Part shown: piece after piece, positions 538 to 64,000 of the stretch
Position numbering within the stretch: position 1 is the first letter of the stretch
How the letters are laid out: each line of letters begins with the position of its first letter
Assembly: GCA_965115995.1 (NCBI GenBank)
Contig: OZ220472.1
Location: forward strand, 3,384,419-3,448,418
Reading direction: 5' to 3'
Length of the DNA stretch: 64,000 nt
Source of the DNA: Acidimicrobiales bacterium
Lineage (GTDB): Bacteria > Actinomycetota > Acidimicrobiia > Acidimicrobiales > Poriferisodalaceae
The notes under the pieces: generated by a model
Databases searched by the model: none
What the model was told of the DNA's origin: nothing
The model's input: only the letters and a program-made list of their open reading frames with translations
Position numbers and translations under genes: made by a program

Positions 538-577
538 CAACGTTCGAGTTCGTACGCTGCGTCGTCGGGAGGCCAAC

Positions 578-1129
578 GTGTCCGAAGCTGTTCGAGTCCG
601 TGCTTACGATTGGATGCGTGAACAGGCCGATGCCCCGGTCGCGGAGTACGTCATGTCGCGGCTGAGTCCCGTGCCGGCGGCCGATCTCGCTACCAAGGCC
701 GATTTGGCGCGTGTCGAAGCCAAGCTCGACGCCTTCATCGTGCATGTGGACAAGAGGTTCGACCTGCTTGTCGGGCTGCGCGAGGCCGATCTCAGAGAAC
801 GTGCGGCCGAACGAGAAGCCGATCTCGCAAAACGTGCGGCCGAGCGCGAAGCCGACCGCAGAGAGCGTGCGGCTGACCGCGAGGCCGATCTTGCAGAGCG
901 TGCGGCTGACCGCGAGGCCGATCTTGCAGGACGTGCGGCTGAACGAGAAGCCGATCTCGCAAAACGTGCGGCCGAGCGCGAAGCCGACCGCAGAGAGCGT
1001 GCGGCTGAGCGCGAAGCCGACCGCAAGGAGTCCGGGCGCCGAGCCTGGAATATCGCCCTCGCGTTGCCCGTGGAGGTCGTCGTGCTGTTCGCGGGCGCCG
1101 CAGCGATCTTGGAGTGGCTCCGCGGTTGA
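578..1129 (+). CDS. Small tail-anchored coiled-coil protein built from 11-residue repeats (tentatively DUF1640-like N-terminal LATKADLARVEAKL motif)
   Basis: Track ORF 431..1129. I place the start at GTG 578 because GGGAGG (567-572) sits 5 nt upstream and 431-577 covers the AT-rich promoter-like stretch. 183 aa: VSEAVRVRAYDWMREQ..DLATKADLARVEAKLDAFIVHVDKRFDLLVGL-(READLxxRAAE x ~7.5)-SGRRAWNIALALPVEVVVLFAGAAAILEWLRG, ending in a C-terminal TM helix. Alternative starts are GTG 431 and ATG 614. Confidence 0.7.
   Translation: MSEAVRVRAYDWMREQADAPVAEYVMSRLSPVPAADLATKADLARVEAKLDAFIVHVDKRFDLLVGLREADLRERAAEREADLAKRAAEREADRRERAADREADLAERAADREADLAGRAAEREADLAKRAAEREADRRERAAEREADRKESGRRAWNIALALPVEVVVLFAGAAAILEWLRG
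779..1030 (+). repeat. In-frame 33-bp tandem repeat (~7.6 units) with a 132-bp (4-unit) higher-order repeat
   Basis: Units encode READLRERAAE / READLAKRAAE / READRRERAAD / READLAERAAD / READLAGRAAE / READLAKRAAE / READRRERAAE / READRKE. The 68-nt string gaacgagaagccgatctcgcaaaacgtgcggccgagcgcgaagccgaccgcagagagcgtgcggctga occurs identically at 809-876 and 941-1008 (offset 132 = 4 x 33). Confidence 0.9.
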
Positions 1130-1270: not shown

Positions 1271-1297
1271 TTGACACCTGTGCGCGGTCAGTAACCT
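1271..1297 (+). promoter_or_regulatory. Weak candidate promoter for the giant gene (perfect -35 hexamer only)
   Basis: TTGACA at 1271-1276. The nearest -10-like hexamers are TAACCT (1292-1297, 15-nt spacer) and TACGCT (1297-1302, 20-nt spacer), so neither has optimal spacing. Listed only as a place to look for a TSS. Confidence 0.2.
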
Positions 1298-1355
1298 ACG
1301 CTCTATATGCCAGCCCGCGAAAGCCGCCCGAGCCCCGGCCATGACCGCCTGAATC

Positions 1356-1369
1356 GGGGGGGGGGGGGG
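1356..1369 (+). repeat. G14 homopolymer tract in the 5' leader/promoter region of the giant gene
   Basis: gaatc-GGGGGGGGGGGGGG-ttcacagcc, counted directly (5 G at 1356-1360 plus 9 G at 1361-1369). It lies 215 nt upstream of ATG 1584. Confidence 0.95.
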
Positions 1370-1583
1370 TTCACAGCCTGCTCGTCTGGGTGCCTTCGGC
1401 GCCTGCGGCGTCGAGTGGCGAATGCGACGGCGGTTTGGCTGGTCGGTCGTGGTTGCGCCCCGGCGCTGGCCGGCTCTGCTGGGAATGGCTGAATCCCGCC
1501 CGCAGGGCTCGCGAGGCTGTCTGCTACCCGCGCGTCCGGGGGCCGTTCAGCCCCGCATGCGTCGCGGTTAGCGGTACTGCCGA

Positions 1584-1727
1584 ATGATGGTCGTGACCTC
1601 TGACGCAACACGAACGGGACGCCTGAGGCGGTTCGGCTCGGCGTCGCTGGCGGTGCTGCTGGTGGCGTCGGTGCTGACGGTGGTGCCGCTTGGGCCACTG
1701 GGCGGTCAGCTGCCGGAGGCGGGGGCG
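1584..1727 (+). other. Sec-type signal peptide of the giant protein (predicted cleavage after AGA, residue 48)
   Basis: MMVVTSDATRTGRLRRFGSASLAVLLVASVLTVVPLGPLGGQLPEAGA|QTAAG. It has a basic n-region (RTGRLRR), a hydrophobic h-region and a small-residue A-x-A-like site. The cleavage position is a guess. Confidence 0.55.
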
Positions 1728-4700
1728 CAGACGGCGGCGGGGGTGACCCTCTCCACTAACGCGATCAGTGTCGGCGAGTTCGGCGGCCATCGCGACGGCA
1801 GCGGTGAGACCTCATACACCATCGTGCTGGACACGAGGCCGACTCATGACGTGGTGATCGGCATCCAGTCCAGCGACACCAACGCCGTGTGGGTAAAGAC
1901 GGGGCCGGGAACAGGAGCGCAAACCGACAACGCGATCACCTTCACCCCGACGAACTGGAACGTTGCCCAGGAGGTCACCGCCCGCGGTCGCAACGACGGC
2001 ATCGACAACACGGACGACAAGCGCACGGCGACGTTCACCCACACCGCGAAGTCCGATGACGCCAGCTACGACGGCTTGGACATCGAGGATGTGACTGTGA
2101 CCGTCATCGACGACGACGACGTCAGGGTGGGCGTCACGCATGTCGACAGCACGAACGATCTGGACGAAGGCAGGTCCTTCGGTTACACGATCAGGCTCTG
2201 GTCGCAGCCGACGCACGATGTCGTTATCACCGCGAAATCCGCGGATTCCGACCGGGTGAAGGTCGGCCCCGCCGGCCAATCGCCGGCGCCTAGCGGCTCG
2301 TACACGGTCACGTTCACGCCATCGAACTGGGCTGCGACACAGATCGTCAGGGTCCGCGGAGTGGCCGACAAGGTTCACAACCTGGCCTTCCGGGAAAACA
2401 TCAACGTCACCCACACCGCCGCGTCCACCGACACCGACTACAACGGGATCGACATACCGACGGTGGTTGTCAGGTTGGAGGACAAGGACGGTGCCTCCGG
2501 GGTGACGGTCACCGAGTCGGGAACCCCGGCGGCCACGGAGGTGAACGAGAGCGGGAGCGGCACTACTGACACCTACACGGTGGTGCTGAAGTCCAAGCCG
2601 TTGAGCGACATCAAGATCTCGGCAACGTCGTCCGCCCCGGGCGCCGCCAAGCTCAAACTGGGCAGCGCAGCGGCCGCCGCCAACGTCACCCTCACGTTCA
2701 AGACGTCGGACTGGAACCAAGCGCAGACCGTCACCGTCGAGGGCGTCGACGACGCCGTCGACAACGCGGACGACATGCGCTCGGTGACGATCACCCACGC
2801 AGTGACCGCAGGCGACGGCGGCAGATACACGTCGGCTCGGCAAATCGACTCGGTGTCAGTGACAGTGAACGACGACAGCGACAAAATCGGAGTGTTGCTG
2901 AATCCTTCCAACCCCAATCTGGGAACAATAACTGAGGGCGCCGTCGGCACTCGGACCATCAGTCTGGCATCGAAACCGCTGGCGCCCGTGACGATCCGTG
3001 TCATGTCGGACAAGCCGGACGTGGCGACTGTGGACCTTCGAGGCGACAACACGCCGGGTGCCCATGAGGTTCTCACCTTCAAACCCGCCACCTGGAACAA
3101 TGGGCAGCTGATCGCTGTTGCCGGCGTCGACGACAACGTCGACAACTACGGGGATCGTTCGGCGACGGTCAGCTTGGCGGTGGTCTCCGGTGACGGCGGC
3201 AAGTACACCACCGACCTGAAGCTCCCGTCCTTACGCGTGACAGTCGGAGACGACGACGAGATCCACCGGTCGGTATTGACCGTTGCGGGGCCGCCGATCC
3301 AGGTGACTTCGCTGGTGGAGCAGAAGAGCAATGGCTCGCGCACCGGGAAATACGAGTTCGCCGCACCGGTGCGGATCACGCTGCCGCGCGAACTGCAATT
3401 CCGCGGTGCCGAACTGTGCGCCTTCGGCACCCCGAATAACAATGACGCCGAGGCGACCAAGCTCGCTCTGGCCGGCGGAACGTGCACTGATGAGTACGAC
3501 TCGGGTGGTGGGCTCGAGACGGTGGGGGCCATCGGCCCGGCGGTGAAGGTGGGCTGGCCCGACACCGGGGTCGAGGTTCTGGGGCTGAAGCGCATCGGCA
3601 CCGGCAGAACGTCGCGCATTATCGGCAGTCAACATGCGGAGGTGCGGCTGCGCTTCACCGGCGCCGCCCTCAAGCAGATCTTCGAACGCGATGTCTGGGC
3701 GGTGGTCCTCGATGTCGGCGGCGTGCTCGTGGAGAACTTCACCCGAACCACTCCAGGTTTCTGCGCGAAGAATCGGAACATCGAAGACGGAAACGACGAG
3801 GCGGGAATAGCCGATTGTCCGTCGCCCTCACGCGGGGTCATCAGCTTCGCCGCCGCCCCGCCGCGGGCCACCTGGGCACTCGACACCACGACGCCTACGG
3901 TTGCCGAAGGCGATGAGGTCACCTTGCGGGTGACGGTGCCCGCCAACAACCTTCCTCGCGACTGGGACCTCGACGTGCCGCTGAAGTTCAGCGGCACGAA
4001 CATCACTGCGGAGGACTATCCGGCTTCGGTGCCGTGCAAGGTTGAGGCACAGCCGACACCACCCGATCCGCCCAAGGCGCTCACCTACGACTGCAAGTTC
4101 ACCGTTCCCACCGACACCAGCAGCGAAGACACCGAGACCCTGGTGATCGAAGTCGACGCCGCCGAGATGGTGCCGCTGGCGAGATTCGTGCCCACCGCTT
4201 CACGGGTGGAGATCGCCATCGAGGACGCCACCCCTGCGTCGGTGACGCTGAGCGTGCCCGACACATATGCCACCGAGAACAGTTTCGTGGATCCGTCGCC
4301 GGCGGTGATCCGGCTCGACGTTTCGGGACCGCTGAGCACTGCGCAGCAGCTCACCGTGCCGCTCGTCATCAACCAGACGCCTTCGAGCGATCCGGCTCTG
4401 GTGGCCGGCACCGACTACCGGCTCGAGTTGGCGCCGACGGCGGGGGTGTCGCTGTCGGGCGCCACGGTGACGTTCGACGGCAGCGGCGGCGACGCACCGC
4501 AGACCGCCGAGATCCGGCTCTACGCACTCGACGACAACGACTACGCCACCGAGAAGCTCACGGTCACCATCCCCGCAGGCGAGTCCGACAACGACCCGAA
4601 CGCCCCGGTGCTCGCCAGCACCGGCTTCCTGCTCAAAGGCGCCAAGGAGGACGTGAAGGGCACCGGCAGCGGCACCATCACCTTCATAGAGGACGACCCG

Positions 4701-7700
4701 AAGTCGGCCGCTCAGGGCGCGCGTTGGGTAACCAGTACAGCGGGAATGAACCGAGGCTGGAAGAACGATTTCACTGAACTGGCCCGCGGGGGGCTCACCG
4801 AGCCGGGCCGTCAACGCTACGGCAAGTCGGGCTTCACCCGCGTCGGCCAGACCGACGTCTTTGAAGCGAGCCTAGGACTTCAGTTCAGATTGGGATATCC
4901 CTCCAGCGGTGCCGATTGGGCACTCTACAGTGGCACGGGCCTTCGACTTGCCGGTACCGGCGACTCCCGCGGCGGGTTCGTCAGCCAGTCCGGCAAGGTC
5001 CTTGCCAGCGACGTGGCGCTCAACGGCGGGGAGGTGACACGCGGCGGCAACACGGTGACCGTTGGCCCGTCCGTCGAACTGCACGACGCCCCCGCCGGCC
5101 TCAGCATCCACAGCATCGAGCGCAGGGCGGTTGATTGGGCGATCGTGACGTTCCGGATGACCGAAGCTGCCATGGACGACTTCCGCGCGCGGCAGGACTT
5201 CTCGGTGAAGGTCGGCGGGATGCTCGTCGTGAGGGAGGACGCATCCCGCCGGGGTGAGCACCCGCACGACGCCAATCTGGCTGCCAAGACCGTGTGCGAA
5301 GAGAATTACGATGTGTCCGAGGTCGGCAAGTGCCGCCCGGCTTACTTCAACTTCAAGCTGTTGCCCGGCGCCAACATCGGCATCGTCGAGTCGGACGATG
5401 CCACGGTGCTCGGCGACACCACCGGCGAGACCGACACCTACACCATCACCCTGGATCAGGCGCCTTCGGCCCAGGTGACGATCACGCCGTCGAGCAGCGA
5501 CAACAGTGTCGTCACCGTCTCGGGACCCCTGGTGTTCAGCCCCTCAGACAGCGGAGCAGCGCTCACCAAGACCGTCACCGTCACCGCGGCCTCCGGCGCC
5601 GACGACAGCACCGACAACCCGGGCGGCTCGCAGCAGGCCGATGTCACCATCAGCCACGCCGTCACCACCACCGCCACTCACTACAGCGGCCTCTCCGTCG
5701 AGGACGTGACCGTCGACATCGTCGACGACGAGCCGACCGTGGTGTCGTTGAAACCGAACTCTCCGAGCGTCGATGTCCCGATGCTGCTGGCAGAGGGCAC
5801 ATCTTCGGGCGGTCCGCGAAGAGTGGCTGCGGAAGTGGATTTGGGCCGTCTGCCGCATCCAGGCGAATCGGTGGATGTCGCGTTCGCTTTGAGCGCGCAG
5901 GGCACCGACGATGACGTGTTCTTCACCGGCTCGGACCGCCGGGTTCAATTGATCTACACCCAACGTCAGAATCGTTGCTGTGTGACGCCCGGCGGGTTCG
6001 AGGGCGGCAGCTCCGCTCCGACCTTGCGCATCGAGGCGAATAACTCCGACCCTCCTCCCAATCAAAAGCAGCTTGTCGTTGTCGCCGTCGTCACGGCGAC
6101 CGACGACGGCGACACCGTTGACGATCATTTCGAGGTGGCGCTGGCGGGCGGCGCCGGGGCGGTGTTCGAGTCGAACTTCGAGGGCGGCGTGGTGGTCCAT
6201 GCCAGCGACCACACGGTGCCGATGACGCTGCTCGACGACGACGCCCCGCAGGGCATCGTGGTGGACACCAAGGCGCTCGAGGTGACAGAGGGCGAGAACT
6301 CCATCGTCAACGTGCGTCTGGCCAACGCGCCTTCCGGCAACGTGAAGGTGGGAATCAACCTGAACGCCGCCTCCGGCAAGGTCACGCTCCCCGCAGACGC
6401 GGTGACGTTCACCGTCGCCGGGGGCGCAGCCCCGTGGTACCAGGCGCAGCCCGTGACCGTCACCGGGGTGGACGACGCCGACTTCTTCGACCACAAGGAC
6501 ATCGACCTGGAGTTCGTGATCAGCGGCGACTCGTCGTCCAAGGTCACCGTGCCCGTCACCGTCGTCGACGACGAGACGCCGACCGGCACCCTGACGCTCA
6601 GCGACGACACCATCTTGATCTCTGACTTCAAGAAGGTGGGCAACAACACCACCGGCTACTGGAGGCTGCTTGTCGACGTGACGCTCGGCGGAGACTACGT
6701 GTTCGCCCGCCAACTGAAGAGCTTCGGAGGTGGCACGGTGTATGGGTTCTTTGATTCGCGGGACTCGGAGATTCGGTTTACGACAGGGGCCGCGTTGGGG
6801 ATTCAGGGCAACTACAACCCTTCGATCGATCTGGTGGGCGCGCCCGACGGGCTGAGGGTTGGCAGCACGACTAGCCAGCAGCCGAACACGTTGGGCATGA
6901 CCGTGCCAGGCCGCGCCGTGACGGGCGGAAACCCCGGCCGGGTAGCGCTCGTGCTCACACCCGCGGCTCGCACGGCGATCACCGAGACAACTGAGGTGAC
7001 GCTGCGGATAGGGAGCTTCCTCATCGAGGGCGTCAAGGACCGCTACGGCAACGCGCCCCCGACCGTGGGTGCCCAAAACGGTCAGGTGCCCAGCCGCGGC
7101 TTGTGCGGGCAGAGCAGGAGCCTGACCGACACCACGGTGTGCCCGCCCGCGGAGGTCACCTTCACGCTGGTGCCGCTCGCCACCGACCCGGTGGACGCCG
7201 AGTGGCTGGCGCTTCCCGACGATCTGACCATCGAAGAGAACGCCGACGGCTCGACCACGGCCGTCAAGGTCGGCACGCCGCTGCGGGCCGTGGACCGCAA
7301 CGGCGACACCGTGACCTACTCGCTGAAGTCGCCGCCCGCCGGCTTCGCCATCGGCAGCAACAACGGCCAGATCAGCTACACCGGCACCGGGCTCGACCGC
7401 GAAGCCCTCACCGACTCGCAGATCACCATCACCGTCGTGGCCACCTCCACCGGCGCCGACGCCAGCGCCACCGGCGTCGAGCAGCAGGCAACGATCACGG
7501 TGACCGACGTGGACGAGGGCGACGCCACGGTGACGCTGCGCGACGACGCCATCGGGCGGGTCGGCTCGATGCTGCACGTCACCGACGTCAGCGGCGACCC
7601 CGACGGCGACCCGGCCGCAGGCGCAATCACCTACCAGTGGCAGACCAGCCGCGACGGCACCAACTGGGCAGCGGCCACCGGCGCCGGAGCGGCCACCGCG

Positions 7701-10700
7701 GCGTACACGGTGGTGAGCGGGGACGACGGCGCCAGCCTGCGGGTGCGGGCCACCTACACCGACGGCGGCGGCAACAGCGAGGAGGTCTTCTCCACCGCCA
7801 CCGTCACCGGCTTCAAATATCCCGGCGCCAAAGCGGCGTTCGCCGTCACCGACAACACCGCCAATGAGGAGTCGGCGGCCAGCACCAAAGCCGAGGCCGC
7901 ACAGTTCACGTTCACGCTCGCCGACAAAGCGAGCCCGGTGGCCGACGAGACGATCGGCTACCACATCGACTTCAGCGGCGGCGCCATCGACGAAGACTTC
8001 ACCCTGGAGCTCGTGCCCGCACAGGGCGTGAGCCTGACCACGCCCACCAAGCAGCAGGCCCGGGTGGTGTTCAGCGCACAGGGAGGCGTCAGGCCAGCGT
8101 CGACCGCCACCGTGTGGCTCAAGGCCCTGGCCGACGACGACAACGCAGCCAACGAGACGATCACCCTCACCCCCGACACGACACTCTTCACCGGCGACCT
8201 CGGGGCGGACGCGCAACTCACCGGTGCCGCGGCGAGCATCACCGTCACCGACGATGACGAGCCTGTCACCGTCACCATGGCCGGCAGCGACGGCGACAGT
8301 GACGGCAACGCGGTGGAGGGCGCCGGCAACGCCACCGGCTACCGCACGGTCACGCTCACGCTGAGCCGAGCGCTCACCGGTATGCAGGCCGTGACGGTGC
8401 CGCTGAGCGTGGCCGGCGCGACGGTCACCACCGACTACACGTTCGCGCTGGCGGGGACGAACACCGGCGTGTCGCTGACCACCACGGGCGGGACGCATAC
8501 GGCGCAGAACCCGGCGGTGGTGTTCGCGTCGGGTGCGCAGACGGCGACGCTGCGCCTCACGCCGGTGGACAACACAGCCCGCACCCAGCCGTACGTGGTG
8601 ATCAGCTACGGCACCGGGGATCGGGCGCCGAGCGGCACCGGCGGCGCCGCCGTGGCCAGCCAGAGCGGCGGCCCCATCGGCGTCGTGCTGGTGGACGACG
8701 AGACGGGCGACATCGAGCTGGCGTTGGACTGGGGGCTCGCTCCGGCCGGGCTGTCGTACGGCGACGACTTCCGGTTGCTGTTCCGCACCTCTGTGGGCCG
8801 CGACGCCACATCGTCGGACATAGCGGTCTACGACGCGTTCGTGCGCGGCGTGCTCGCGCAGGGCGGCCACAGCGACATCAAGCCATATGCCGGGTTCTTC
8901 AAGGTGTTCGGCGGGACTCGCAGCGCGTCGGGCTCGACGGGAACGTCGGTGCGGGTCCACAACGGGCTGGCGACGCGTCATACCGGCCATCTCTCCGGGG
9001 GATATGTATGGGCGGACGGCTCCACCCGGGCGACGGTGGGCAGCACGACGGGTGTTCCCACCTACTGGCTGAACGGCGCGATCCTGGCCAACAACTACGC
9101 CGACCTCTGCGACATCGCCTGGTCGACCGGCAACGGTGTCACCACCGGCTGGGACCGCGATGACCCGCGCAGCGAGGACGGCACGCGCAACGTCCCTGCA
9201 TCCGTGCCCGGCAACAATTTCGGGCCGTACTCGACGTGGACGGGCTCGGGCAACGCCTGTGAGGCGTGGAACAATCCGCTGGGATCCGACACCGTGTCGC
9301 GCTCGGCGGCAGGCAGCGGCGGCGGGCAGACGCTGCTGCATCAACGCGCTGCGGCGAACACGAGGACACACCCGTTCTACGGCTACTCGCCGGTGTTCAA
9401 GCTGTTGGCGAAGCCGCCGGAGCTGACCTTCGGCTCGGCGGCCTTCAGCGGCGCTGAGGGCGACGGAACCATCGACGTCACCGTACGCGCCGACGCTGCG
9501 CCGCGCAGCGCCCTGACGGTGGCGCTGGCGACGACCGCAGGCACGGCGACGGGCGGCGGGACCGACTACACCGCCCCGGCAGCAACATTCACCTTCCCCG
9601 CCGACGTCACCTCGCACACCTTCAGCGTGACCGTCAACGACGACTCGGTCGTGGAGCCCAACGAGCGCTTCGCGCTGACGCTGAGCGCCGGCACGGGCTA
9701 CACGGTCGGCACGCCGTCGTCGGCCACGGTGACCATCGTCGATGACGACGGCCTGTCTGTCGCCATGGTCGCCTCGCACGGCGACAGCGACGGCAACGCA
9801 GTCGAGGGTGCCGGCGACACCACCGGCTACCGCACGATCACGCTCACGCTGGGTCGGGCGCTCGCCGGCTCGGAGACCGTCACGGTGCCGCTGAGCGTGA
9901 CCGGTGCGACGGTCACCGCCGACTACACGTTCGTGCTGGCGGGGACGAACACCGGCGTGACGCTGACCACCACGGGCGGGACGCATACGGCGCAGAACCC
10001 GGCGGTGGTGTTCGCGGCGGGCGCGCAGACGGCGACGCTGCGCCTCACGCCGATGAACAACAACGCCCGCACGCAGCCGTATGTGATCGTCGACTACGGC
10101 ACGGACAGCAGGGCGCCGGCCGCGACGGGCGGCGTCACGTTGGGCACGCCGTCCGGCGGGCCGATCGGCGTCATTCTCGTCGATGACGAGACGGGCGACG
10201 TCGTGCTGCCTGCGGGGGCGAGCTTCCGGCCGACAGGAGTGTCCAAGGACGGCGAGGAGTACCGGATTCTGTTCATGACCTCTGAGGGCGGGCCGGCGAC
10301 GTCGACCGACATCGCGGACTACGACCATTTCGTGCGGGCCTCGGCAATCCGCAACGGCAACGCCGATCTGCTGCCCTACGTCGGGTTCTTCAAAGCGTTC
10401 GTGTCGACCCCGACCGTCGATGGCCGCACCCACGTCGGCATCTGGGACCCGAAAGCCAACAACGGCTCGGGTGCCTACGCCACCGGTCAGGCGATCTATT
10501 GGCTCAGCGGAGACTTGGTGCATGCGAGCTACCGGAGTTTCTGCCTCAGGGAGTGGTTCGGTCGGTGGAATTCGGCGGACGACACCCGCCTGCGCCACCC
10601 CGACGGCGCACAGGGCGACGGCGCGAAGGTGTGGACCGGGATGAACAACAACTGCACGACGAGCTCGGCCCCGCTGGGCTCGGCCGCACCGACCTACGGC

Positions 10701-13700
10701 CCCGGCGCGCAGGCCGGCAGCGGCACCGCATCGAAGGCGCTGTCGCTGGGCACTGAGGGGGCCGGCAACGAGAACCGGTTCTACGCGGTGTCGGAAGTGC
10801 TCAAGACGGTGGCGTCGCCCGCACAGCCGGTGGTGGCGTTCGCAACACGGGCTACTTCGAGCAACGAGGGCGACGATGCGACGTTCACGTTGAATGCCAG
10901 CCCTGCTCCGGCGCAGGACCTGACGCTCTCCTACACCTCGCAAGTCGGCACTGGCGACGAACCAGCGACCGCGGGCGAGGACTTCACCGCTGGCGTCGGC
11001 ACGGTGACGATCCCCGCCGGACAGGCTTCGGCGACGTTCAACATCGCGATCCCCGACGACGACATTTTCGAGACATCGGAGACGTTCAGGATTCTGCTGG
11101 TTCCCTCGCCCGACTATCTGCCCGGCAGCACCCGCAGCTCTGTCGTGACGATCCTCGACGACGACGAGCTCAAGGTGGGCTTCGAGCGGGCGGGGTACTG
11201 GGCGCTCGAGGACAGCGGCAGCATTGATGTCGACCTGACCGTGGATCGTGAATTGGAACGGTCGGCGGAGGTGACCCTGTCGGTGGGCGGCACCGCCACG
11301 CCCGGCAGCGACTACACGGCCCTGCCGTCGACGACTGTGACGATCCCCGCGGGGACCACGACGGGGACGCACACCCTCACCATTCCCATCATCGACGACG
11401 CCGCCGCCGAAACCGACGAGACGGTCATCTTGGAGATCGTCAGCACCAAGCCGGCTAGTCGTGTATCCACCGCGACCCGCGACATGACGACGGTGTTCAT
11501 CGCCGATCAAGACCACATCACGCCCGGCCTCGTCGTGCCGAGCACCGTCGAAGTGGGCGAGGGTGGGGCGGCGACGTATCTGCTGCGGCCTGTCACCGAG
11601 CCGACCGGCACGGTCACCGTCACGATCTCGGGCCAGTCCGACGCCGTGCTGACGCTCGACGCCGACGACAGCGCGAAGGGGGTGCAGGCCTCCGTCGAGT
11701 TCGACGCCTCCAATTGGCACATCGGACGCAGGATCACCGTGAACGGCGTCCACGACAACGACATCGACAACGACACGGTCACACTCACCCACACAGCAGC
11801 AGGCGGCGGATACGCCTCGGTCACCGGCACCGTGGCCGCAACCGTCGTCGACGACGACCTGGTGCAGTGGTGGAAGGCGGGCGGCGACCCTCTGGCAGCG
11901 CCTGAGGCGGTCGAGACGATTGCCGAGGGGGAGAGCCTGACGCTGACGGTGACGCGGCGGAACTCGGCCGGCGCGGTGTCGATCCCGATCGGGGTACAGG
12001 AGGTATCGGCCAAGGCCTCCGACGGCGACTATGAGGCGCCCGCCACCGTCAAGTTCGCCGGCAGGCAGAACGAGGCCACCTACACGTTCACAGCGTTGCG
12101 CGACAACGACACGGCCGAGGGCGACGAAGTGGTGACGATCACCCTCTGCCCCGCAGCAGACTGCCCCGCGCCCTACGGCTCGGGGGCCACGCCGCCGACC
12201 ATCGACGTGACCATCACCGATGGGCCGCGGCCCCACGGCATCTCGGTGAAACCCGCCGCGGCCACGATCGCCCTTGACGAAGGCGCCGGCGACGCAGCCG
12301 TCCGCACCCTGGAGGTGTCGCTGGAGTCGAACCCGACGGTGGCAGCCACCGTCACCGTCACCTCCACCGACCCGGCCGCGGTGACCGTCGACACCGACCC
12401 CAGCACCGCCGCCGCCGAGAGCACCATCACGTTCACACCCGGCACCACCGGCAAAGACGGCGACGGGAACTGGGCCGAAGCGGTCAGCGTCGAGATCGCC
12501 GCGGTGGACGACACCGACCTCGCAAACGAGTCGGTCACGGTGACCTTCTCGGTCGAAGCAGCCAGCGGCCCCTACCACTCGTCGACGTCGCCGCCGGTCA
12601 CCGACGAGACCCGCACCGTCAACGTGACCGACCCGGGCGTCGCGGTGATCGTGTCGGACACCGACCTCAACCTCCGCGAGGAGCGCGGCACCGCCACCTA
12701 CACCGTGCGCCTGGGCACCCCTCCGGCCCCGGGCCGCAGCGTGGAGGTCACCGCCAGCTCGACGGCTGTGGAGCGGGTGACTGTCGGCAGCGCCGTGCTG
12801 AGCTTCGACTCGACCAACTGGAACCAGCCCCAGACGGTCACGCTCACCGGTGTGGACCTGCCGACGCAGACCCCCGTCACCGTTGCCATCACCCACTCGA
12901 TCACCCAGAGCGACGACGTGAGCTACCCCACCACGCTCGCGGTCGACTCGCTGACAGCGAAGCTGTTCCATGCGCCCACCGTCATTTTTGGGTCTGGATC
13001 GGACGCCAATCTCACGGTTGTCGAAGGTTCGTCCATAGACGCCGAGTTGACCGCCTGGCCAGGACCGGACGGACTCGGTCTGCCGGTGACGGTGACGGTG
13101 CGCGAGTACGGCGGCGACCGGATCGCAGCCGAAGAAGAAGGCGAGCGCGTGGTGGTCTTTGAGCCGTGCCCCGTGCTACTGGGGTGCTTCAACGGGTCGG
13201 CCAGGTTCTCCATTCCCACCAACGCGGACAGCGCCGACACTGCCGACAGTCGCGTGTTCATCGCACTGCACGGCGACGCGGGCCCCGGCTACTTGATCGG
13301 AGGCCGTACGTTCTTGGATGCGGTGGTCACCGACGACGATCCGACCACGGTCACCTTGTCGGGATCGGACCGCGTGCCCGACGACGGCGGCGAAGCGACG
13401 ATCACCCTGACGCTGAACCGGGTCCTGAGCAACAATTTGAACGCGGCACCCGCCGAGAAGCTGACGGTTCCGCTCACCTTCGCCGGCGGCACCCTCGGTA
13501 CCGACTACTCGCTGGCGCTGGCCACGACGAACAATCTGGTGACGCTCAACACGTCGAGCCCGCACAGCGCGCAGCACCCGGCCGTGGTCTTCACCGGCGG
13601 GCCCAACAGCGTCGCGACAGCGGAGCTCACCCTCACTGCCATCGACACGGGAGCGACCGCGCCGCTCACGGTGAGCGTGGCGTTCGGCGCCGGCAACCGG

Positions 13701-52700: not shown

Positions 52701-55700
52701 GTGGCCGCGAGGGTGGCCGACGACGACGGGCCTGCGTTGCCGCAGGTCCAGTTCGCCCAGGCGGCTTACACCGCCGGTGAGCCAGCCGGTGATCGGACAG
52801 TGTCGCTGGGGATGGGCGTGTCGCCGGCGCCGACCGGGTCGTTCACCGTCGCCTACACGGTGACCGGCACCGCTGCGACGGGCGACGATTTCGCGGTGCT
52901 GTCGGGCAGCGTGGCCGTCGCGGCCGGGGCGACGACCGTCACGATCCCGGTGACGGTGCTCGACGACACGGTCGACGAGCCGCCTGAGACGATCGTGGTG
53001 ACCCTCGACGACAGCAGCGCCTACCGGGTCGGCTCGACCGCGGCGGCGACGGTGACGGTCGCCGACGACGACGCCACGGTGGTGCGTCTGGCGCGGGTCG
53101 ACGGCGGCCCGATCTCCGAGGGCGAGACGACAGGCGACAAGGCCGACGCCGAGTTCACGGTGAAGCTGGGCCGGGCGCTGGCTGCGGGCGAGGTCGTCGA
53201 GGTGCCTTTGGTGCTGTCTGCGTTGAAGGGCTCGGGCAGCGACGTCACCGCCGCTGACGTGAACGTCGCGGCCAAGACGGGCGCGTCGATCAACGCCGGT
53301 GTGGCGGTCGGCGCTGGCGGGTCGTTGGCGCCGACGGTGACGTTCACCGGTCACGCCACCGATGCGGTGCAGACCGCGACGCTGCTGCTGTCGTCGCCCG
53401 ATGACAGCGACACGTCGGAGTTCCAGGAGAAGGTGACGGTCGCCCTCGGCCCCGACGACGCGACGGCGACCGGGTTCGGCCATTCCGGGAGGGCGACGAA
53501 CGCGGGCGGCGGCGCCGTTCCGCATCGTTCGGCCGGCTCGTTCGATGTGGCGGTGCTCGACGGAGCGCCGGTGGTGGTGACGTTGTCGGGCGGGGGCCGT
53601 TTGTTGGAGGGCTCCAAGAACAGCGTGACGGTGACCGTAGAGCTGGACCGGGCGTTGGCGGCCGGTGAGGTGGCGGAGGTGCCCGTCACGGTGCAGAGCC
53701 TGACCCAGTCGATCCTGTCGGGCCCGGCGCGGCTGTTGGAGCGGATGCGGGCGCTGAAGTGGACAGCGACGGGCACCGGGGTGACCATCGGGGCCGACCC
53801 GTTGACGAACTCGGGGCCGTACAAAGCGGCGCTGCTGGTGGTCTTCGACGGCGCCGGCGCGCAGACCGCTCAGATCGAGTTCACCGCCGTGAACGGCGAC
53901 GCGGACCGTTCCAACGAGCGGATAACGGTGCGGATCCCCTCCACTGGGAACGCGCTCAACGCGCCGGCCCGCAACACCAACCTCGCAGGCGGCCTGGCGG
54001 CGGGGAGCCCGTCTTTGGCCGCGGTCAACCTGTTCGAGCCCGGTAGCGAGCTCGAAGCCACCCTCGCAGTCGACAACAACGGACAAGTCGCAGAAGGCGG
54101 CTCGCTGACGGTCACCGTCACCCTCGACGCCAACACCGACACCGAGGTGGACATCCCGGTGCGGATGCGCACCTTGGGTTTGCCGACCGCGTCGGCAGCC
54201 GATTTCACGCTGTCGAACAGCGGCGTGGTCACCATCAGCAGCGGCACCAACCAGGGCACCGTCACCCTCACCGCCAACACCGACAGCGTCACCGAGGCCG
54301 ACGAATTCTTGATCCTCGAGTTCGGGAACCTGCCCGTCGGCATCGTCGCAGCCGACAGCGGCGTCACAGCCAAAGTCACCATCACCGACGTGCAAGAGGC
54401 GGCGAACAGTGCGCCGACGGTGGCGAATGAGATTCTTGACCAGAAGGCGACGCCGGGTGCGGCGTTCAGCTACGTCTTTGCGGCGAACACGTTCAGCGAC
54501 GCGGACGGCGACGCGTTGACTTACACCGCCGCTGAGTCCGACGACACCGCCCTGCCGACGTGGCTGACGTTCGACCCCGCCAACCGCGCGTTCTCGGGCA
54601 CGCCGCAGTCAGCCGATGTCGGGACGCTGTCGGTGAAGGTGACCGCGGACGACGGCAACGACGGCACGGTCTCGGACACGTTCGACGTTGTGGTGCAAGC
54701 CTCGGTGGTGGTGGTGTCGGCGCCGGTGCTGAACCTGGTCGAGGGCGGGAACTCGGTGGTGTACAACGTGGTGTTGCGGACGCCGCCGCCGGGCAGTGAT
54801 CCGGTTGTGGTCACGCCGCGCATCGACGATGCGGGGGTGGCGGATTTCGACGGTGCTGGGGCGGCGACGGGTCCGACGTTGAGGTTCGACGCGGCCAACT
54901 GGGACAATCCTCAGTTGGTGGTTGTGTACCCGACATCCGATGCTGGCGCCACCGCGAATGGCAGGGCGACGATCACGCACACTGTCACCGGTTACGGCGC
55001 GGTCACGTCAGCGCCTCTTGTCGTCGTGCACCTCGTGGAGAGGTCCGACTCTGCGGGGTTGGTCTTGTCTGAGGACTGGGTGATCGTGGAAGAGGGCGGC
55101 AGCGCGTCGGTGGCCGTACGGCTGGCGTCGGCCCCGGCCGGCGAGGTCACGGTTTCGGTGACCGGCGCGTCGGGCGGCCTGTCGGTGGACTCGGGCGGCG
55201 CGCTGGTCTTCGGCCCCGACGACTGGCATCTCTCCCAGGTTGTGACGGTCAGCGCCGCGGACGAGTCCGACGCCTCTGACACCGACGACGAGACGTTCAC
55301 GCTGGTGTTCACGGCGTCGGGCGGCGGTTACGGGCCGGTGAGCGAGTCGCTCGCCGTGTTCGTGTACGACGACGAGTTCGCCGGCCCGACGTTCACGGTG
55401 ACGGGCGCGGACGCGGTTGAGGGCACCACACCGGCGGTGTTCACGGTGACCGCAGACCAGACGTTGAGCACGGCGGTGGATGTGGCGTTGAATGTCTCTG
55501 AGTCGGGGCATTTCGTGGCGTCGTCCGACGAGGGCGAACAGACGGTGTCGTTCTCGGCCGCGCAGCTCACCCGCACTCACAGCGTGCCGATCGTCGACGA
55601 TGTGAACGCGGAGCCTTCGGGTGAGGTCACAGCGGAGTTGGCACCGGGCACCGGGTATCACATCGGCGTTCCGTCGGTGGCGACGTCGACGGTGACCGAT

Positions 55701-58700
55701 GATGATGCGGGCAGCACGCAGATGACGGTGTCGGTGGAGCGCACCGGTGCGGCCCACGTGAATGAGGGCACCGGCAATGTGGCGGGCGAGCCGATCGCGT
55801 TCGAGGTCACGTTGGGCAGGGCTTTGACGGCGGGCGAACGGGTCGATGTCGGGCTGGTCATCTCCGGGGCGGGGGTGACGGCGTCGGATTTCGCGGCGCT
55901 GGCGAAGACGGCGGGCAGGGATCTGAACACGGGTGTGAGCGTGGAGGCGGCGGGGTCGCTGGCGCCGACGGTGGTCTTCGCCGGCGAGGGCGCGCAGTCA
56001 GCGACGCTGGTGCTCGAGCCGATCGACGCGGTGCTCGAGACGCCGCGCAATGAGGTGGTGGCTGTGGCTCTGGCCAGCGCAGCGAGGCTGGGGGCGGACA
56101 GCGACACGAACGTGCCCGAGACGCTGGTCGTGGACTCGAGTGCCGATGAGTTCACCGCGACGGTGGTCGACGACGAGTACGAGCTGACGTTCACGCAGAA
56201 CTCGTTCACGGCGGCGGAGGGCGACGGGCCGGTGTCGGTCACGCTCGAGCTCTCGCGGGTGTTGACCCGGGACGTGCTGGTGGCGTTGACGCTCGACGAT
56301 GTGACCACAACAATCGACGATTGGGAGCTTGCGAACGACTCCACCGATCCGGTGACGATCCCCGCGGGCGAGCGGCGCGCCACTTTGGAGTTCTCGGTCG
56401 TCGATGACGATGTCATCGAGCCGACCGAGACGCTGCGGGTTCTGACGGATCCTCAGCATCGGCCTGCGGGCACGGTGTTGGATGTCGCCACGGTGCAGAT
56501 CGCTGACAACGACCCGACCGTGACGGTCACCGCAGCCTCGGAGGTGTTCGAGGGCGACGCGATCGACTTCACGGTGACACGCAACGCGGTGTATGCCGGG
56601 ACCGGTGACAGCAGGACGTCGAGTGCGTTGACGGTGAACGTGGCCGTGGCCGAGTCGGGTTCGACAGATTATGTGGCTGCCGGCGATGAGGGTCCCCGGC
56701 AGGTGACGATCCCGGCGAATGAGGCGTCGGTGACGTTCACGGTTGCCACGACGGGCAACAGCAGCGCTGACAGCGGTGCGAACACGGCGACGGCGACGGT
56801 TCAGGCGCCGACGACTGCGGCTGCCTACTTCGTGGCGGCGGGGTCGAAGGGGTCCGCCGTGGTGAGCGTTCTTGATGACGACGCTCCCGGCGTGACGGTC
56901 AGGCCGGTGTCGTTGCGTGTCTGGGAGCTCGACAACGGGTTGACGGACGACCATCGTGAGGACCAGGCGACCTATCAGGTGCGGTTGAGTTCGGCGCCCG
57001 GCGCGGGTGAGACGGTGACGGTCACCCCGACGAGCGGCGACACTGCTGCGGCGACGGTGGACCCGACAAGCCTCGATTTCACAGCGGCGAACTGGAAGGT
57101 CCCGCAAGTGTTCACGGTGACCGGCGTTGCCGACGCGACCGAGAGCGCGGGTCACCAGCGCACGGTGACCGTTACCCATGCGGTGAGCGCGTCGGGGTCG
57201 GGGAATTACGGGTCGGTGACGACAGGGCCTTCGGTGAGCGTGGATGTGATCGACGTGCCGGTGCTGTCGATCGCCAGCCCGAGCGTTACCGAGGGTGACA
57301 GCGGCACGACGGATTTGGTGTTCACGGTGACGTTGACGCCAGCGAGTCGGCGGACGGTGACGGTGGATTACCTGCGTTGGGATGCGCTCAGCACCACGGC
57401 ACCCGGTGTCGATCATGAGGCTGTGACGCCGGGGACGTTGACGTTCGCGCCTGGTGAGACGTCGAAGACGGTCACGGTGAAGGTGCTCGGCGATGTCGTC
57501 GTTGAGCCTGATGAGAATTTGGTGCTGTATCTGCGGGATCCGACGGTGGCGGTGTTGGACCCGGATGCGGTGGCGAGTATCGGCGATATCCGCAACGACG
57601 ACACTTCGGCGCCGCCGGTGCTGTCGATCGCCGGTAGCAGCACCGCAGAGGGTGACAGCGGTACCGCTGATTTGGTGTTCACGGTGACGTTGACGCCCGC
57701 GGCCAGCCGGACTGTGACAGTCGGTTACAGCCGCGGGGCTGTGAAGCTCACCCCCGCACAGGTCGCGGCCGGCCGGCGCGGCGCTACCGGTTCGGTGGAT
57801 TATGAGGCTTTCGTGGGGGGGACGCTGAGCTTCGCGGCGGGTGAGACGTCCAAGACGGTGACGGTGAAGGTGAAAGGAGATGTCGACGTCGAGCCTGATG
57901 AGTTGGTCGTGGTGGAACTGTCGGATCCGGTGCATGCGGTGATCGACCCGGCCGGCCAGAAAGCCGTCGGTGTGATCGCCAACGACGACGGCTTGCTGAG
58001 ACTGTCTGCGACGACGGCGACGATCGACGAGGTCGACGACTCTGCTACGCCGTCGGTGCGAGAGGACCAGGTCACGTTCACGGTGCAGTTGAGCGAGGCG
58101 CCCCAGGGCGGGGACGTGAAGGTGGCGGTCACCAGCGAGAGGCCTGTGGTGACGGTGAGCCCGAGGGAGCTGACGTTCGCCGCCGGCGACTGGAACGACC
58201 CGCAGACGGTCACGGTGAGCGCGGTCAACGACATCGTCGACAACTCCGGCGACGAGCGGACCGGGACCGTCAAGCTTGTGGCGTCGGGGGCGGGCACCGG
58301 CTTCGACGGCGCTGCGGCCAAGGTGCTCGTCGCGGTGACCGACGACGATGGCCCTCCGGTGCTGTCGGTTGATACCCCGACCGTGGAGGAGGGCGACAGC
58401 GGCACGACGGATCTGGAGTTCACGGTGACGTTGGACAGTCTCAGCGGCAACACCGTGACTGTGGACTACGCCGATTCCGGCAGCGGCACCGCCACCTCGG
58501 GCGCCAACGCCGACTACAAGCCGGTCACGGCGGGCACGGTGACGTTCAAGCCGAATGAGACATCGGTGACCGTCACAGTGACCGTCAACGGCGACACCAC
58601 CGCGGAACCCGACGAAGCCGTCGTGTTGAGCTTGTCGAACCCATCGAATGCCACGCTTGCAGGAGGCGGCGTCTCGCTGGTGGCGACCGGCACGATCCTC

Positions 58701-61700
58701 GACGACGACACCACGGTGGAGGTGTCGGCGGTGCGCACAGGCGCAGCGACCGTCAACGAGGGCACGTCCGGCGACGCCTATGAGAACGACGAGGGCGTTT
58801 GGGTCGACCCGGCGCACGGCGCGATCACTTTCGAGGTCAGGCTCAGCCGCGCTCTGGGATCGGGCGGACGGATCGAGGTGCCGCTGGCAGTTTCGGGTAC
58901 TGGTGTCACCGCCGACGATTTCAAGGACCTGGTCCTCGCCGACGGCGACTCGCTCAACACGGGAGTGAGCATCACCGACGCCAGCACGTTGACCCCTGTG
59001 GTGGTGTTCGACGGCGCCGGCGCGCAGATCGCGACGCTGATACTCGAAGCGTTCGACGACGACTTGGAAGACCCCCGCAACGAGACCGTCACCATCGCCG
59101 TCGCGACCGACGCGGTGCTCGCCGCGCGGACCGGCACCACCGTCGCCGACGTCGCCCGCTCCGCCACCGTGTACAGTTTCGACACGACGGTGGTCGACGA
59201 CGAGTATCTCTTGGAGTTCACCGGGTCGGATCGGGTGAGGGTGCCTGAAGGGGCCGGCACGGTCAGCCTCGATTTGGGTCTGTCGCGGGCTGTGCACCGT
59301 GACGTGCTGGTGCGGTTCCGTTACGTCGATAACCCCGCCCTGCTTCCAGGCCCCAAGGACCTGTTCGGTTCGCCGGCGCGTGCCACCTCGGGCACCGATT
59401 ACACCCCCGCACACATCTTCGGCACCGAAGCCATCATCGAGGCGGGCGACACCGCGATGACGTTGACGTTCGACATCGCCGACGACAGCGACGACGAGTC
59501 CACGGAACGGCTACGGATCGCGGCCATACCCGAGAACCGGCCCGTCGGCTACCCCAACGACGTCGCCGACGTGTACATCGTCGACAACGACCCCGCCGGC
59601 GACAACGTGGTGGTGTCGGCGTCGAGCGTCGATGTGATCGAGGGTGCCGCCGCGGGCACCTACACCCTGAAGCTGGCGTCGGACCCGGTGCAGGACGTGA
59701 CCGTCACCGTCACTGTTCCCCAGGCGCACCGCGACGCGGTCACGGTGACAGCGCCGGGCGGCACCGCGGGGGCCACCGCCGAGCTCACCTTCACCACCGC
59801 CGGCACCGGCATCTGGTCGACCGCGCAGACCGTCACCGTCAGCGCCATTGCCGACGGCGACACCGTTGATGAGACCGTGCAGCTCGCCCACAGCGCCGCG
59901 GTGACCGTCACCGACAACCCTTACCACCAGATCGCCATCGACCCGGTAACCGTGAATGTCACCGACGACGCCAACGCGCCCGTGTCGGTGGCCATGTCCG
60001 CCTCCGACGGCGACAGCGACGGCAACGCGGTGGAGGGCGCGAGCGGTGCCACCGGCTACCGCACGGTCACTGTCACGCTGGGCCGTGCGTTGACCGGTTT
60101 GGAGACGGTGACGGTGCCGTTGACCGTCGTCGGCGCAACAGTCACCAGCGACTACACGTTCGGGTTGCAGCCCACGTCGCAGACGGGCGTGTCGCTTTCC
60201 ACGTCGGGTTCGCACAGCTTGCAGGACCCGGCGGTCGAGTTCGCCGCGGGCGCGCGGACTGCGACTCTGCGGCTGACGCCGGTGGACAACGAGGTCCCCA
60301 CGCAGCCGTATGTGATCGTCGACTACGGCACGGGCGGCCGCGCGCCCAGCGCCGGCGGCGGTGTCCCGCTGGCTGCGCCCACCGGCGGCCCGGTCGGCGT
60401 TGTCCTCGTCGATGACGACGGCGGCGACATCGAGGTGCCGTCGAATTGGGCGCTGGCGCCGTCGGGCCTGTCGGGCGGCGACGAGTTCCGGCTGATGTTC
60501 GTGACCTCCGAGACGCGCACCGCCGAGTCGGCTGATATCGATGTGTACAACGAGTGGGCGCGGGGCGTGGTCGCCGCGGGCGGGCACGCGAGCCTGAAGC
60601 CGTATGGCGGGCTGGTCACGGTGGTGGCCAGCACCGTGACCCGCCCGGCGCGCAACAACACCGGCATGTGGGCCTCGGGGGCTCACACCGACGGTTCCGC
60701 CAACGCCTCCGATCCCGGTGTGGCCGTGTACTGGCTGGCCGCGCCTCCAGGCGACAAGGTGGCCGACAACTACGCCGATTTCCACGACAATTCCTGGGAC
60801 GGCGGCGCCGACCAGTCGGCCCGAGACACTGTCGAGTCCGGGGCGGACCGCGCGGCCGCCGCAGCGTTCTGGACCGGCAGCCGCCCCAGCGGCCAAGCAG
60901 CCGCCAACAGAGCGAACCGGCTCGGCTCAAGCATGCCGGCCACAGCGGTCGTCGACTCCGGCGGCACTCTCTCAGGGCCCGGCGCGAGCCCGACCAGCGC
61001 GCTGGCGATGCTGGTCATGTCACCAGTGTTCAAACTGGCCACAACCGCAGCCGCACCGGTGCTGGCGTTCAGCAAGGCCACCTACGACATCGCCGAGGAC
61101 GGCGGCACCGTCAGCGTGATCGTTAACGCAAACAACGCGCCGCCCATGGATCTGACGGTGAGCCTGAGCACGAACGACGGCACCGCCACCGGCGGAACCG
61201 ACTTCACGAATCCGGCGACGACGTTCAGTTTCCCCGCCGGCATGACCTCGCACACGATCCGCGTCGACATCACCGACGATATGGCCCTGGAGAACGACGA
61301 GGACTTCACGCTGACGCTGGCGGCGGGCACCGACTACACCGTCGGCACGCCCGCGACGACGACGGTGACCATCACCGACAACGAGCCCGACCCGGTGATC
61401 TCCATAGCGCCCGTGGCGGCCACGGTCACCGAGGGCACCGACGCCGTGTTCACGGTGACGGCGACCCCAGCACCGACAGCGCCGTTGACGGTGAACCTCA
61501 CGGTGGTCGAGACCGGCAGCTTCGGTGCGTCGCCCACCGGTTCGCAGACCGTCACGATCCCCACCACCGGCTCGACCCTGTTCACTGTGAACACTACCGG
61601 CGACTCCCTTGATGAAGCCGACGGGTCGGTGAAGGTGGCGGTGGACACGGGGTCGGGCTACACGGTGTCGTCGACGAGTGGCTCCGCGACGGTGGCGGTC

Positions 61701-64000: not shown

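Follow-up and report, generated by a model that had tools for sequence, protein, structure and literature searches.

A giant gene encoding an array of Calx-beta-like modules in an Acidimicrobiia bacterium of a sponge-symbiont lineage

A reading frame that opens near the left end of a 64,000-nucleotide stretch of bacterial DNA and is still open at its right end raises the question of whether it is one gene, what its product is built from and what such a product could do for the cell. The stretch, referred to here as the window, lies on contig OZ220472.1 of the Acidimicrobiales assembly GCA_965115995.1 (Poriferisodalaceae; positions 3,384,419 to 3,448,418 of the forward strand), and all coordinates below count from its first letter. 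Here, we report that the frame is one real gene, at least 62.4 kb long, whose protein has a mass of at least about 2.1 MDa and is built largely of Calx-beta-like modules. We regard it as probable that this protein is exported by the Sec route and forms a Ca2+-stiffened fibre that displays binding modules on a Candidatus Poriferisodalis-like sponge symbiont. A first-pass annotation, made from the letters and a list of open reading frames (ORFs), had already proposed one real giant gene for an exported, modular repeat protein of the Ca-binding type. This core reading stands; what it had overlooked is a domain family (type A below), the local pairing of the cysteines and the identity of the organism.

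An open frame from position 1584 to the window edge

The longest open stretch on the plus strand of the window is 1572..64000 (62,429 nt; codon starts at coordinates divisible by 3). It starts straight after the stop codon at 1569-1571, and from its start codon, ATG 1584, 20,805 sense codons follow with no stop up to the window edge at 64000. As seen in the window, the giant ORF (1584..64000, + strand, open at the right edge) comprises at least 20,805 codons and encodes at least 2.10 MDa of protein with a pI of 4.1, the part within the window containing 2,661 Asp and Glu residues versus 996 Lys and Arg residues. The second-longest open stretch on the plus strand measures 1,533 nt. The giant frame is eight times longer than any other open frame in the window and is the only one with a signal in the GC content of third codon positions (GC3): in every 3-kb block, the GC content at codon positions 1, 2 and 3 is 0.62-0.71, 0.50-0.58 and 0.84-0.92, respectively. 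Since GC3 keeps this value along the full length of the ORF, the DNA is coding throughout in this frame.

The absence of stops points in the same direction: base composition predicts one stop per 46 codons, and ln P for 20,805 codons with no stop is -455. Codon-position GC is nevertheless the better coding test because the frames antisense to the giant gene are also open, for up to 7.6 kb, and the first-pass statement that a non-coding frame closes every few dozen codons fails in coding DNA of such high GC3. Long antisense ORFs (2.4-7.6 kb; e.g. 5544-13175 and 47181-52061, both on the minus strand) were considered as genes and rejected: that they stay open follows from the high GC3 on the opposite strand. 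Antisense frames of this size would appear as large ORFs in naive ORF tracks. The giant frame itself was missing from the ORF list, which the first-pass annotation had explained by the omission of edge-open ORFs; this explanation is right, as the lister drops by design any ORF that runs off an end. The annotation was also right in reading a single frame of at least 20,805 codons from ATG 1584, in view of the lack of stops, the GC3 and a gene call from the same ATG in a sister strain.

The sister strain (locus L061; this and the other L numbers are our labels for related loci) is represented by a 3.58-Mb ENA contig with 99.3% DNA identity to window positions 1-11126 (11.1 kb); owing to this value, it is a sister strain and not the same sequence. 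The call for its giant gene starts at the identical ATG, as a check of the offset confirmed, and gives a closed product of 20,775 amino acids (aa); the first 9.5 kb of the giant gene show no indels between the two strains. A point nonsense change as the cause of the length in L061 was ruled out: no single-base change at the collinear codon makes a stop. The alleles therefore differ in length elsewhere, beyond the compared stretch, and the stop of the window strain probably lies not far past the window edge. With regard to the source, a 1,736-aa helicase encoded near the locus in L061 clusters at >=90% identity with the RefSeq protein WP_419553327.1 from Candidatus Poriferisodalis sp. The source belongs to the Acidimicrobiia and is close to Candidatus Poriferisodalis, which is a lineage of sponge symbionts, and the giant gene takes up ~1.7% of its genome of roughly 3.6-3.8 Mb.

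A repetitive locus invites the suspicion of an assembly artefact, that is, an in-frame chimera of shorter paralogues joined via repeats. The largest internal DNA repeat is a 5.4-kb super-repeat with a period of ~1,900 aa, whose copies at 43356..48696 and 49074..54390 (both + strand) are 83.3% identical; two other stretches, 34063-37348 and 61714-64000, are partial copies of it. Exact repeats in the window reach 141 bp at most. Repeat collapse is unlikely because the internal repeats are at most 83% identical and exact repeats do not exceed this length.

Homologous loci support the same conclusion. Among species-representative genomes, the nearest are found in Acidimicrobiia metagenome-assembled genomes (MAGs), namely Candidatus Poriferisocius, Aldehydirespiratoraceae and unnamed Acidimicrobiia, lineages of sponge symbionts that PMC11706023 describes. 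The related loci L001, L003, L004 and L005, from chromosome-level Acidimicrobiia MAGs, each have one frame open across the whole ~15-21 kb, and L004 and L002 jointly give a continuous frame of at least 33 kb closed by a true stop. Collinear alignment with such homologues reaches up to 5,900 aa: residues 329-5998 of L001 are collinear with residues 11435-16995 of the window protein at 54% identity, and L005 is collinear at 59% over ~3,100 aa. L001 and L005 lie on a single contig (OZ219922.1), 196 kb apart on opposite strands. The giant locus is a conserved gene family and not a mis-join.

Several observations on relatives can be added. In L006, the Candidatus Poriferisocius homologue, the giant frame is broken at 11440-11684 (244 nt), beyond which the original frame is open again as far as the locus extends; the database fragment P0142 continues across this break point and later ends in frameshift-like sequence. 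Either the sequences contain local errors of assembly or the gene is turning into a pseudogene in that relative, and the apparent C-terminus in L006 was rejected on the grounds of the reopened frame and the read-through in P0142. Loci found via the cadherin-like unit described below in phylogenetically distant MAGs of sponge type, from Spongiisociaceae (L050), Arenicellales (L058), Poriferihabitaceae (L015) and Litorimonas (L042), are also open over 15-21 kb, and giant repeat genes that share this module class seem to be common across sponge-associated lineages.

The gene is already present in public assemblies, unnamed. A scan of the contigs of species-representative genomes gave no exact match to it, only relatives of at most 80% identity, and a scan of JGI metagenomes gave nothing above 33% identity. 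In a 5.8-billion-protein index queried with aa 1-1000 and the last 330 aa, no self match was obtained and all listed matches are <=1,750 aa; this index evidently returns no giants. The entries listed from an exhaustive representative protein library are at most ~7,900 aa long, the closest being a 1,026-aa fragment at 74% identity.

Modules of the giant protein

Searched in five pieces of 4-4.8 thousand amino acids (kaa), the protein matches Pfam Calx-beta (PF03160) in each piece at 120-233 bits (cut-off 27), with E values down to 6e-70; only 18 Calx-beta stretches pass the Pfam threshold on their own. Besides Calx-beta, the five pieces contain He_PIG, a weak cadherin match and DUF4843, and no further Pfam family. 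A module map was therefore built de novo from the protein itself by an iterated self-profile, which gave 129 matches, 126 of them non-overlapping. The Calx-beta-like module defined in this way has a core of ~99 aa and a median start-to-start distance of 124 aa; the first four modules occupy 1749..3257 (+ strand), and the other 122 tile most of 4242-63248. Compared singly with Pfam, 24 of the 126 match Calx-beta (E<=0.01, best 1.3e-23), 13 match LapA (PF20579) weakly and none matches another family. The joint profile of all 126 modules, in turn, matches the CBD1 domain of NCX1 (3us9, 2fws, 2dpk) over profile positions 9-130 of 131 with E values of 1.7e-12 to 1.8e-9, and Drosophila CALX1 also matches it. 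The assignment to the Calx-beta class, which the first-pass annotation had also made, is sound since the joint profile matches the solved NCX1 domains over their full length, even though most modules are too divergent for Pfam.

Several conserved columns of the module are mostly occupied by acidic residues. Across the 126 modules, these are an A-strand Glu (97%), a loop Asp (67%), an Asp-Asp pair (52 and 83%), two further Glu positions (51 and 61%) and a terminal DDD (85, 60 and 67%). In the profile alignment, they stand opposite the LEN, SDY, DDDIFEEDE and DDD segments of NCX1 CBD1, whose residues, grouped at the sandwich tip beside the C-terminal exit, we take to be the ligands for Ca2+. Three consecutive acidic residues are found at the junction in 67 of the 126 modules, and DDD occurs 67 times in the giant protein compared with 12.6 expected. 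The acidic junctions are thus the putative canonical Ca2+ site of Calx-beta domains. The first-pass annotation had noted DDD/DDDE junctions between nearly all modules; the junctions are real and represent the C-terminal D-D-D of the Calx-beta fold, but 'nearly all' was an overstatement for about half of the modules.

Nevertheless, there are differences from NCX1, with which the array shares the full-length profile alignment and the positions of the acidic motifs. The first is in sequence, as many window modules carry an 'F..(G/S)NW...T.TV' variant and lack the 'DY' motif. The second concerns location: the Calx-beta domains of NCX1 sit in an intracellular regulatory loop, whereas the window modules belong to a presumed extracellular array.

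With the N-terminal 48 residues included, the module map assigns 93% of the residues. About 150 assigned domains together with ~1,000 unassigned residues give roughly 155-160 domains, fewer than the 170-190 first estimated. Spacer-type modules, monotonous in character, make up ~80% of the length of the giant protein. He_PIG (putative Ig) repeats had also been named as building blocks; the domain is real (PF05345, 54411..54695, + strand, E 1.5e-20, positions 1-95 of 96), but it occurs only once in the window.

Interspersed with the spacer modules are three further types of element. Type A comprises six copies of a domain of ~230-250 aa with the motifs FRLLF.TS and WTG, one Cys pair and two invariant Trp residues, a third Trp being invariant among the window copies. 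All copies lie on the plus strand: four are at 8703..9458, 10191..10868, 32532..33230 and 60420..61097 (copies 1, 2, 5 and 6), copy 3 at 24669..25358 was used for structure prediction, and copy 4 at 28800..29516 is the most divergent. Searches of Pfam (E<=1) and NCBIfam found no relatives of type A, and neither an 8-copy nor a 30-copy profile matched a PDB sequence. The AlphaFold2 (AF2) model of copy 3 is poor, with a predicted local distance difference test score (pLDDT) of 56.7, and Foldseek returned no fold match for it. The domain is conserved, with 3-6 copies in each ~21-kb homologous Acidimicrobiia locus and three in one Dehalococcoidia MAG; it was found in L001, L002, L003, L005, L006 and L013.

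Type B consists of six two-domain units of ~240 aa plus one partial unit, also on the plus strand, each full unit being a pair of cadherin-like beta-sandwich domains: 7179..7889, 35913..36650, 38592..39302, 45144..45881, 50871..51584 and 63231..63962, the last of which adjoins the window edge. Cadherin repeats had been claimed in the first-pass annotation, and at the level of the fold the claim is well supported. The AF2 model of the fourth unit (45144..45881), which has weak cadherin sequence matches, reaches a pLDDT of 80. Foldseek gave 197 significant matches to it in the PDB, the first 50 of which are without exception pairs of extracellular cadherin (EC) domains from classical cadherins, protocadherins and cadherin-23 (E 7e-8 to 7e-6, probability 1.0). 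The template modelling (TM) scores of these matches are only 0.32-0.46, which we ascribe to a different inter-domain angle in the model. At the level of sequence, the units stay below the gathering score of Pfam Cadherin (PF00028), with 18-22 bits compared with 28.8 (E 0.0036 for one unit), while their matches among PDB sequences are all cadherins with E values of about 1e-3. Residues invariant over eight copies include E20-N21, D36..D40, D86-x-E88 (G[VL]D[RH]E) and D121-V-x-E124 (DVDE/DVNE). They resemble the Ca2+-linker motifs of cadherins (LDRE-like, DxD and DxNDN-like) and are candidate counterparts of them.

Type C comprises four non-repeat inserts of ~200 aa, each ending in Cys-x(7-17)-Cys followed by a strand; they lie in the N-terminal third of the protein, and their mutual relatedness is weak. 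Insert 1 (3258..4301, aa 559-906) contains three Cys pairs, and insert 2 (4698..5432, aa 1039-1283) ends in Cys-x11-Cys followed by a beta strand; neither has a Pfam or NCBIfam match. Insert 2 is related to insert 3 (6576..7178, aa 1665-1865; blastp 3e-6), and insert 4 (21270..21815, aa 6563-6744) shows weak similarity only; all four are on the plus strand. Among stretches to which the module map assigns no domain, the largest is 26370..27326 (+ strand, aa 8263-8581), where the self-profile drifts into the general beta-sandwich module family; the others, on the same strand, are 3954-4241 (within insert 1), 19329-19703, 28122-28799, 31023-31391 and 39303-39710.

Insert 1 is also where differences between the two strains cluster. 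Over the first 3,180 codons, the overall ratio of non-synonymous to synonymous differences per site (pN/pS) between the window and L061 is 0.71, and this high value comes from one patch of 170 codons. The patch, aa 590-760 (nt 3351-3863), has a pN of 0.081 and a pS of 0.054, with ~31 non-synonymous versus 7 synonymous differences, which are small numbers; aa 1100-3180 are 99.9% identical with a pS of 0.0012. These values hint at diversifying selection or an imported recombination tract in the patch, as expected of an exposed recognition surface.

Export, proposed function and rival readings

The N-terminus (aa 1-48; 1584..1727, + strand) resembles a signal peptide, with an Arg-rich n-region, a hydrophobic segment at aa 17-36 and the sequence AGA|QT thereafter. 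This segment is the most hydrophobic stretch of the whole giant protein and is preceded by four Arg residues. Among 19-residue segments with a Kyte-Doolittle value of at least 2.0, apart from the N-terminal run there are only two borderline ones at aa 15926-15927, which are Val-rich. We infer that the N-terminus is a Sec signal peptide or a signal anchor, the putative cleavage site having been placed by inspection. A Tat (twin-arginine translocation) signal, suggested by 'RRF', was not adopted owing to a poor match to the consensus; export of a folded protein of such size also seems implausible. An extracytoplasmic location is further supported by the cysteines: all 46 form 23 local pairs with members 1-50 residues apart, an arrangement seen in none of 100,000 random placements, and such pairing fits the disulfide signature expected of a protein outside the cytoplasm.

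The GGxGxD motif of RTX proteins is absent from the 20,805 aa of the window protein and from the last 6,697 aa of L002 including its true C-terminus, and the only LPXTG sequence in the window protein is an internal LPATG at aa 13498, a chance match. L002 (OZ243951.1) offers the sole true C-terminus visible in the family. In its final 2,000 aa, the domains are He_PIG, Big_9 and Calx-beta alone, with a small tail in addition. The end of the protein, at 19763-20092 of the locus, is an Asp/Thr-rich acidic linker and then a stretch of ~75 aa with a Cys at both ends. This Cys-bounded tail may be an unrecognised anchoring or docking module.

On this basis, the working that we consider probable can be outlined as follows. 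The N-terminal Sec signal (or signal anchor) would thread the protein out of the cell unfolded and, if uncleaved, would tether it. Once outside, the modules would fold, form their disulfides and load Ca2+, which is abundant in seawater, at the module tips by the inter-module junctions. Rigidification by Ca2+ is established for the linkers between cadherin EC domains and for the Ig-like repeats of MpIBP, SiiE and other giant adhesins. If the chain behaves like cadherins and MpIBP/SiiE-type adhesins, Ca2+ could stiffen it into a rod of ~0.6-0.7 um (~150 domains x 4-4.5 nm). The Calx-beta modules would act as the spacer, and the type A domains, the cadherin-like pairs and the N-terminal inserts would be the likely ligand-binding parts, mediating attachment to the host matrix, to host cells or to other microbes. 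Sec export and a fibre of micrometre scale, as we infer them here, are consistent with all of the evidence.

A number of points weigh against this outline. The AXA site lies ~12 residues past the hydrophobic core, a long distance for a Sec signal that is cleaved, and the N-terminus may instead be an uncleaved anchor. The window edge at 64000 precedes the stop codon and the C-terminus, and with them any C-terminal anchor, and the C-terminus of L002 shows no LPXTG, no transmembrane segment and no match in Pfam, NCBIfam or PDB. The Ca2+ binding of the modules is predicted from aligned residues only, and 70% of the modules match no Pfam family singly. With its poor model and no fold match, a binding role for type A is a guess. 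Finally, the frame in the window, not yet closed at the edge, already exceeds the L061 product by at least 30 codons.

The rival that survives best is an envelope or matrix scaffold: a loose coat, a sheath or a Ca2+-buffering polyanionic layer, comparable to an S-layer or a capsule, that would shield the cell from phagocytosis, phages and grazing and have no specific ligand. The extreme net negative charge with hundreds of putative Ca2+ sites would suit such a layer, as would the predominance of monotonous spacer-type modules and the presence of several such genes per related genome (L001 and L005 on one chromosome); searches of Pfam and NCBIfam recognised no lectin or adhesin tip domain in the giant protein. 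However, the non-spacer modules are interspersed and conserved across species, with type A at 3-6 copies per locus and recurrent cadherin-like pairs, and one of the N-terminal inserts differs from strain to strain. Both are more characteristic of binding proteins, and no self-assembly domain was identified. We therefore consider the scaffold unlikely, yet the first alternative to be kept in mind.

A more specific role in symbiosis, as a variant of the exported fibre, is somewhat more doubtful still. Sponge aggregation factors (MAFp4, AqAFs) are secreted extracellular arrays of divergent Calx-beta domains that retain the residues for binding Ca2+, and their adhesiveness requires this ion. The window protein shares with them the Calx-beta class and the sponge habitat, which makes the parallel suggestive. 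The genes of the aggregation factors are nevertheless eukaryotic and contain introns, and they specify 2-15 Calx-beta domains together with Wreath and VWA/VWD domains; the likeness is at the level of the domain class alone. Conceivably, the array of ~126 Calx-beta modules mimics or co-assembles with the sponge aggregation factor or matrix, holds the symbiont in the mesohyl and marks it as 'self' against phagocytosis; type A might then be a new glycan- or protein-binding module and aa 590-760 a determinant of host specificity. Such a reading is admissible because the lineage is sponge-associated and enriched in these domains, because aggregation factors are Ca2+-dependent Calx-beta arrays and because type A is conserved with no known relative.

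A contact-dependent weapon or predation device, in which the fibre positions enzymes or toxins as proposed for Omnitrophota and other episymbionts, appears very improbable. Giant proteins elsewhere have been linked to attachment to and degradation of prey cell walls, and both the ~7% of unassigned residues and the C-terminus beyond the window could accommodate an effector. Yet searches of Pfam and NCBIfam and the hydrophobicity profile gave no enzyme, toxin, SecA_DEAD or multiple-transmembrane content in the 20,805 aa, and the C-terminal 2,000 aa of L002 hold no such domain. The giants of Omnitrophota, of up to 85,804 aa, are reported to have many transmembrane regions as well as enzyme domains and a divergent SecA_DEAD domain (West-Roberts et al. 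2023). The window protein, in contrast, lacks multiple transmembrane helices, SecA_DEAD and enzyme clusters, and one fold dominates it.

Lastly, an assembly artefact or a dead, non-expressed relic is scarcely credible: the 5.4-kb super-repeat, the different product length of L061, the local break in L006 and the pN/pS of 0.71 could be read in its favour, but the repeats are too divergent, the independent L061 assembly likewise has a closed gene whose size is nearly equal, collinearity with homologues from other species extends over thousands of residues, a uniformly high GC3 and zero stops in 20,805 codons would have been lost in a relic, and the pN/pS is driven by the single patch, divergence elsewhere being too low to judge.

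Known systems and neighbouring genes

For the exported fibre that we prefer, the giant Ca2+-dependent repeat adhesins LapA (Pseudomonas), MpIBP (Marinomonas) and SiiE (Salmonella) are probably the closest functional analogues and the best match for its probable working; judged by its visible part, the window protein is not a member of their family. The analogy lies in a long array of beta-sandwich extenders of ~100 aa, acidic Ca2+ sites near the junctions (putative in the window protein) and interspersed or terminal modules that bind or would bind ligands. The differences lie in the RTX nonapeptides, which are absent from the part of the protein within the window, in its actinobacterial host and in its length, which is 4-14 times greater. 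Furthermore, its N-terminus is signal-peptide-like, where adhesins of the RTX/type I secretion system class have a retention (plug) domain.

The lineage itself has a known domain signature. Sponge-symbiotic Acidimicrobiia (Poriferisodalaceae/TK06, UBA11606) are significantly enriched in Calx-beta, cadherin, fn3 and leucine-rich repeat (LRR) proteins compared with free-living relatives (PMC11706023). The eukaryotic-like proteins described there come from the same lineage and have the same domain classes as the window gene, which is very probably one of the proteins behind the Calx-beta/cadherin signal. That study reports domain counts in mostly fragmented MAGs, and the passages of it that we searched mention no giant genes of ~60 kb; here, the N-terminal 20.8 kaa of the architecture are resolved. 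Short-read MAGs shatter such genes, and the enrichment very probably reflects megadalton fibres and not many small proteins. The ~1.7% of the genome spent on one gene, with several such genes per related genome, represents a heavy investment by this Calx-beta/cadherin-enriched sponge-symbiont lineage.

With regard to size, the first-pass placement among the largest prokaryotic genes is dated, since predicted proteins of 30-147 kaa have been reported. Predicted proteins above 30 kaa are reported in Actinobacteria, and one of 36,805 aa in the Chlorobi symbiont of Chlorochromatium. Across 18 long-read metagenomes, 3,650 proteins of at least 10 kaa and 348 of at least 30 kaa were found, with a maximum of 147,155 aa (2026 preprint, 10.64898/2026.06.07.730766); the window protein fits the 'tandem-repeat scaffold' class of that work and is 2-7 times shorter than the current record giants. 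Endozoicomonas genomes contain 92 genes above 15 kb (15-65 kb). The giants of Chlorochromatium, Omnitrophota and Endozoicomonas are likewise encoded by single ORFs that span tens of kilobases; their bacteria live in association with a host or partner, and the role usually proposed for them is adhesion. The gene described here belongs to a known class of giant bacterial surface fibres or adhesins and is large, not record-size.

No published description of the giant gene was found in the literature searched. New here are the architecture as resolved above and the type A domain family, along with the pairing of the cysteines and the N-terminal patch that varies between strains. The domain family of ~230 aa, the cadherin-like pairs and the strain-variable insert provide targets for studying how the symbiont attaches to, or hides in, its host.

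Two small genes precede the giant gene. A gene at 578..1129 (+ strand, GTG start) encodes a 183-aa protein with an identical copy in a public collection and no Pfam match. The protein has about seven 11-aa repeats of the AEREADL type, encoded by a 33-nt tandem array at 778-1020 that is the sole tandem DNA array of the window, and a hydrophobic C-terminal tail. The 5' part of a small membrane-protein gene lies at 1..292 on the minus strand and runs off the left edge; the edge-open gene that had been suspected here corresponds to a 118-aa gene call in L061. Both neighbours have a single hydrophobic segment and no family match, and adjacency is the sole tie seen between them and the giant gene. 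A promoter scan upstream of the giant gene found none, a terminator scan gave one chance-level match, and Rfam and tRNA scans found no Rfam family or tRNA gene in the window. Farther upstream, beyond the window, positions 1-9081 of L061 encode an HNH protein, an IS3-type transposase pair (HTH_Tnp_1 and rve) and the 1,736-aa helicase mentioned above, which is of the DEAD/UvrD type and carries a RecQ family annotation in Candidatus Poriferisodalis.

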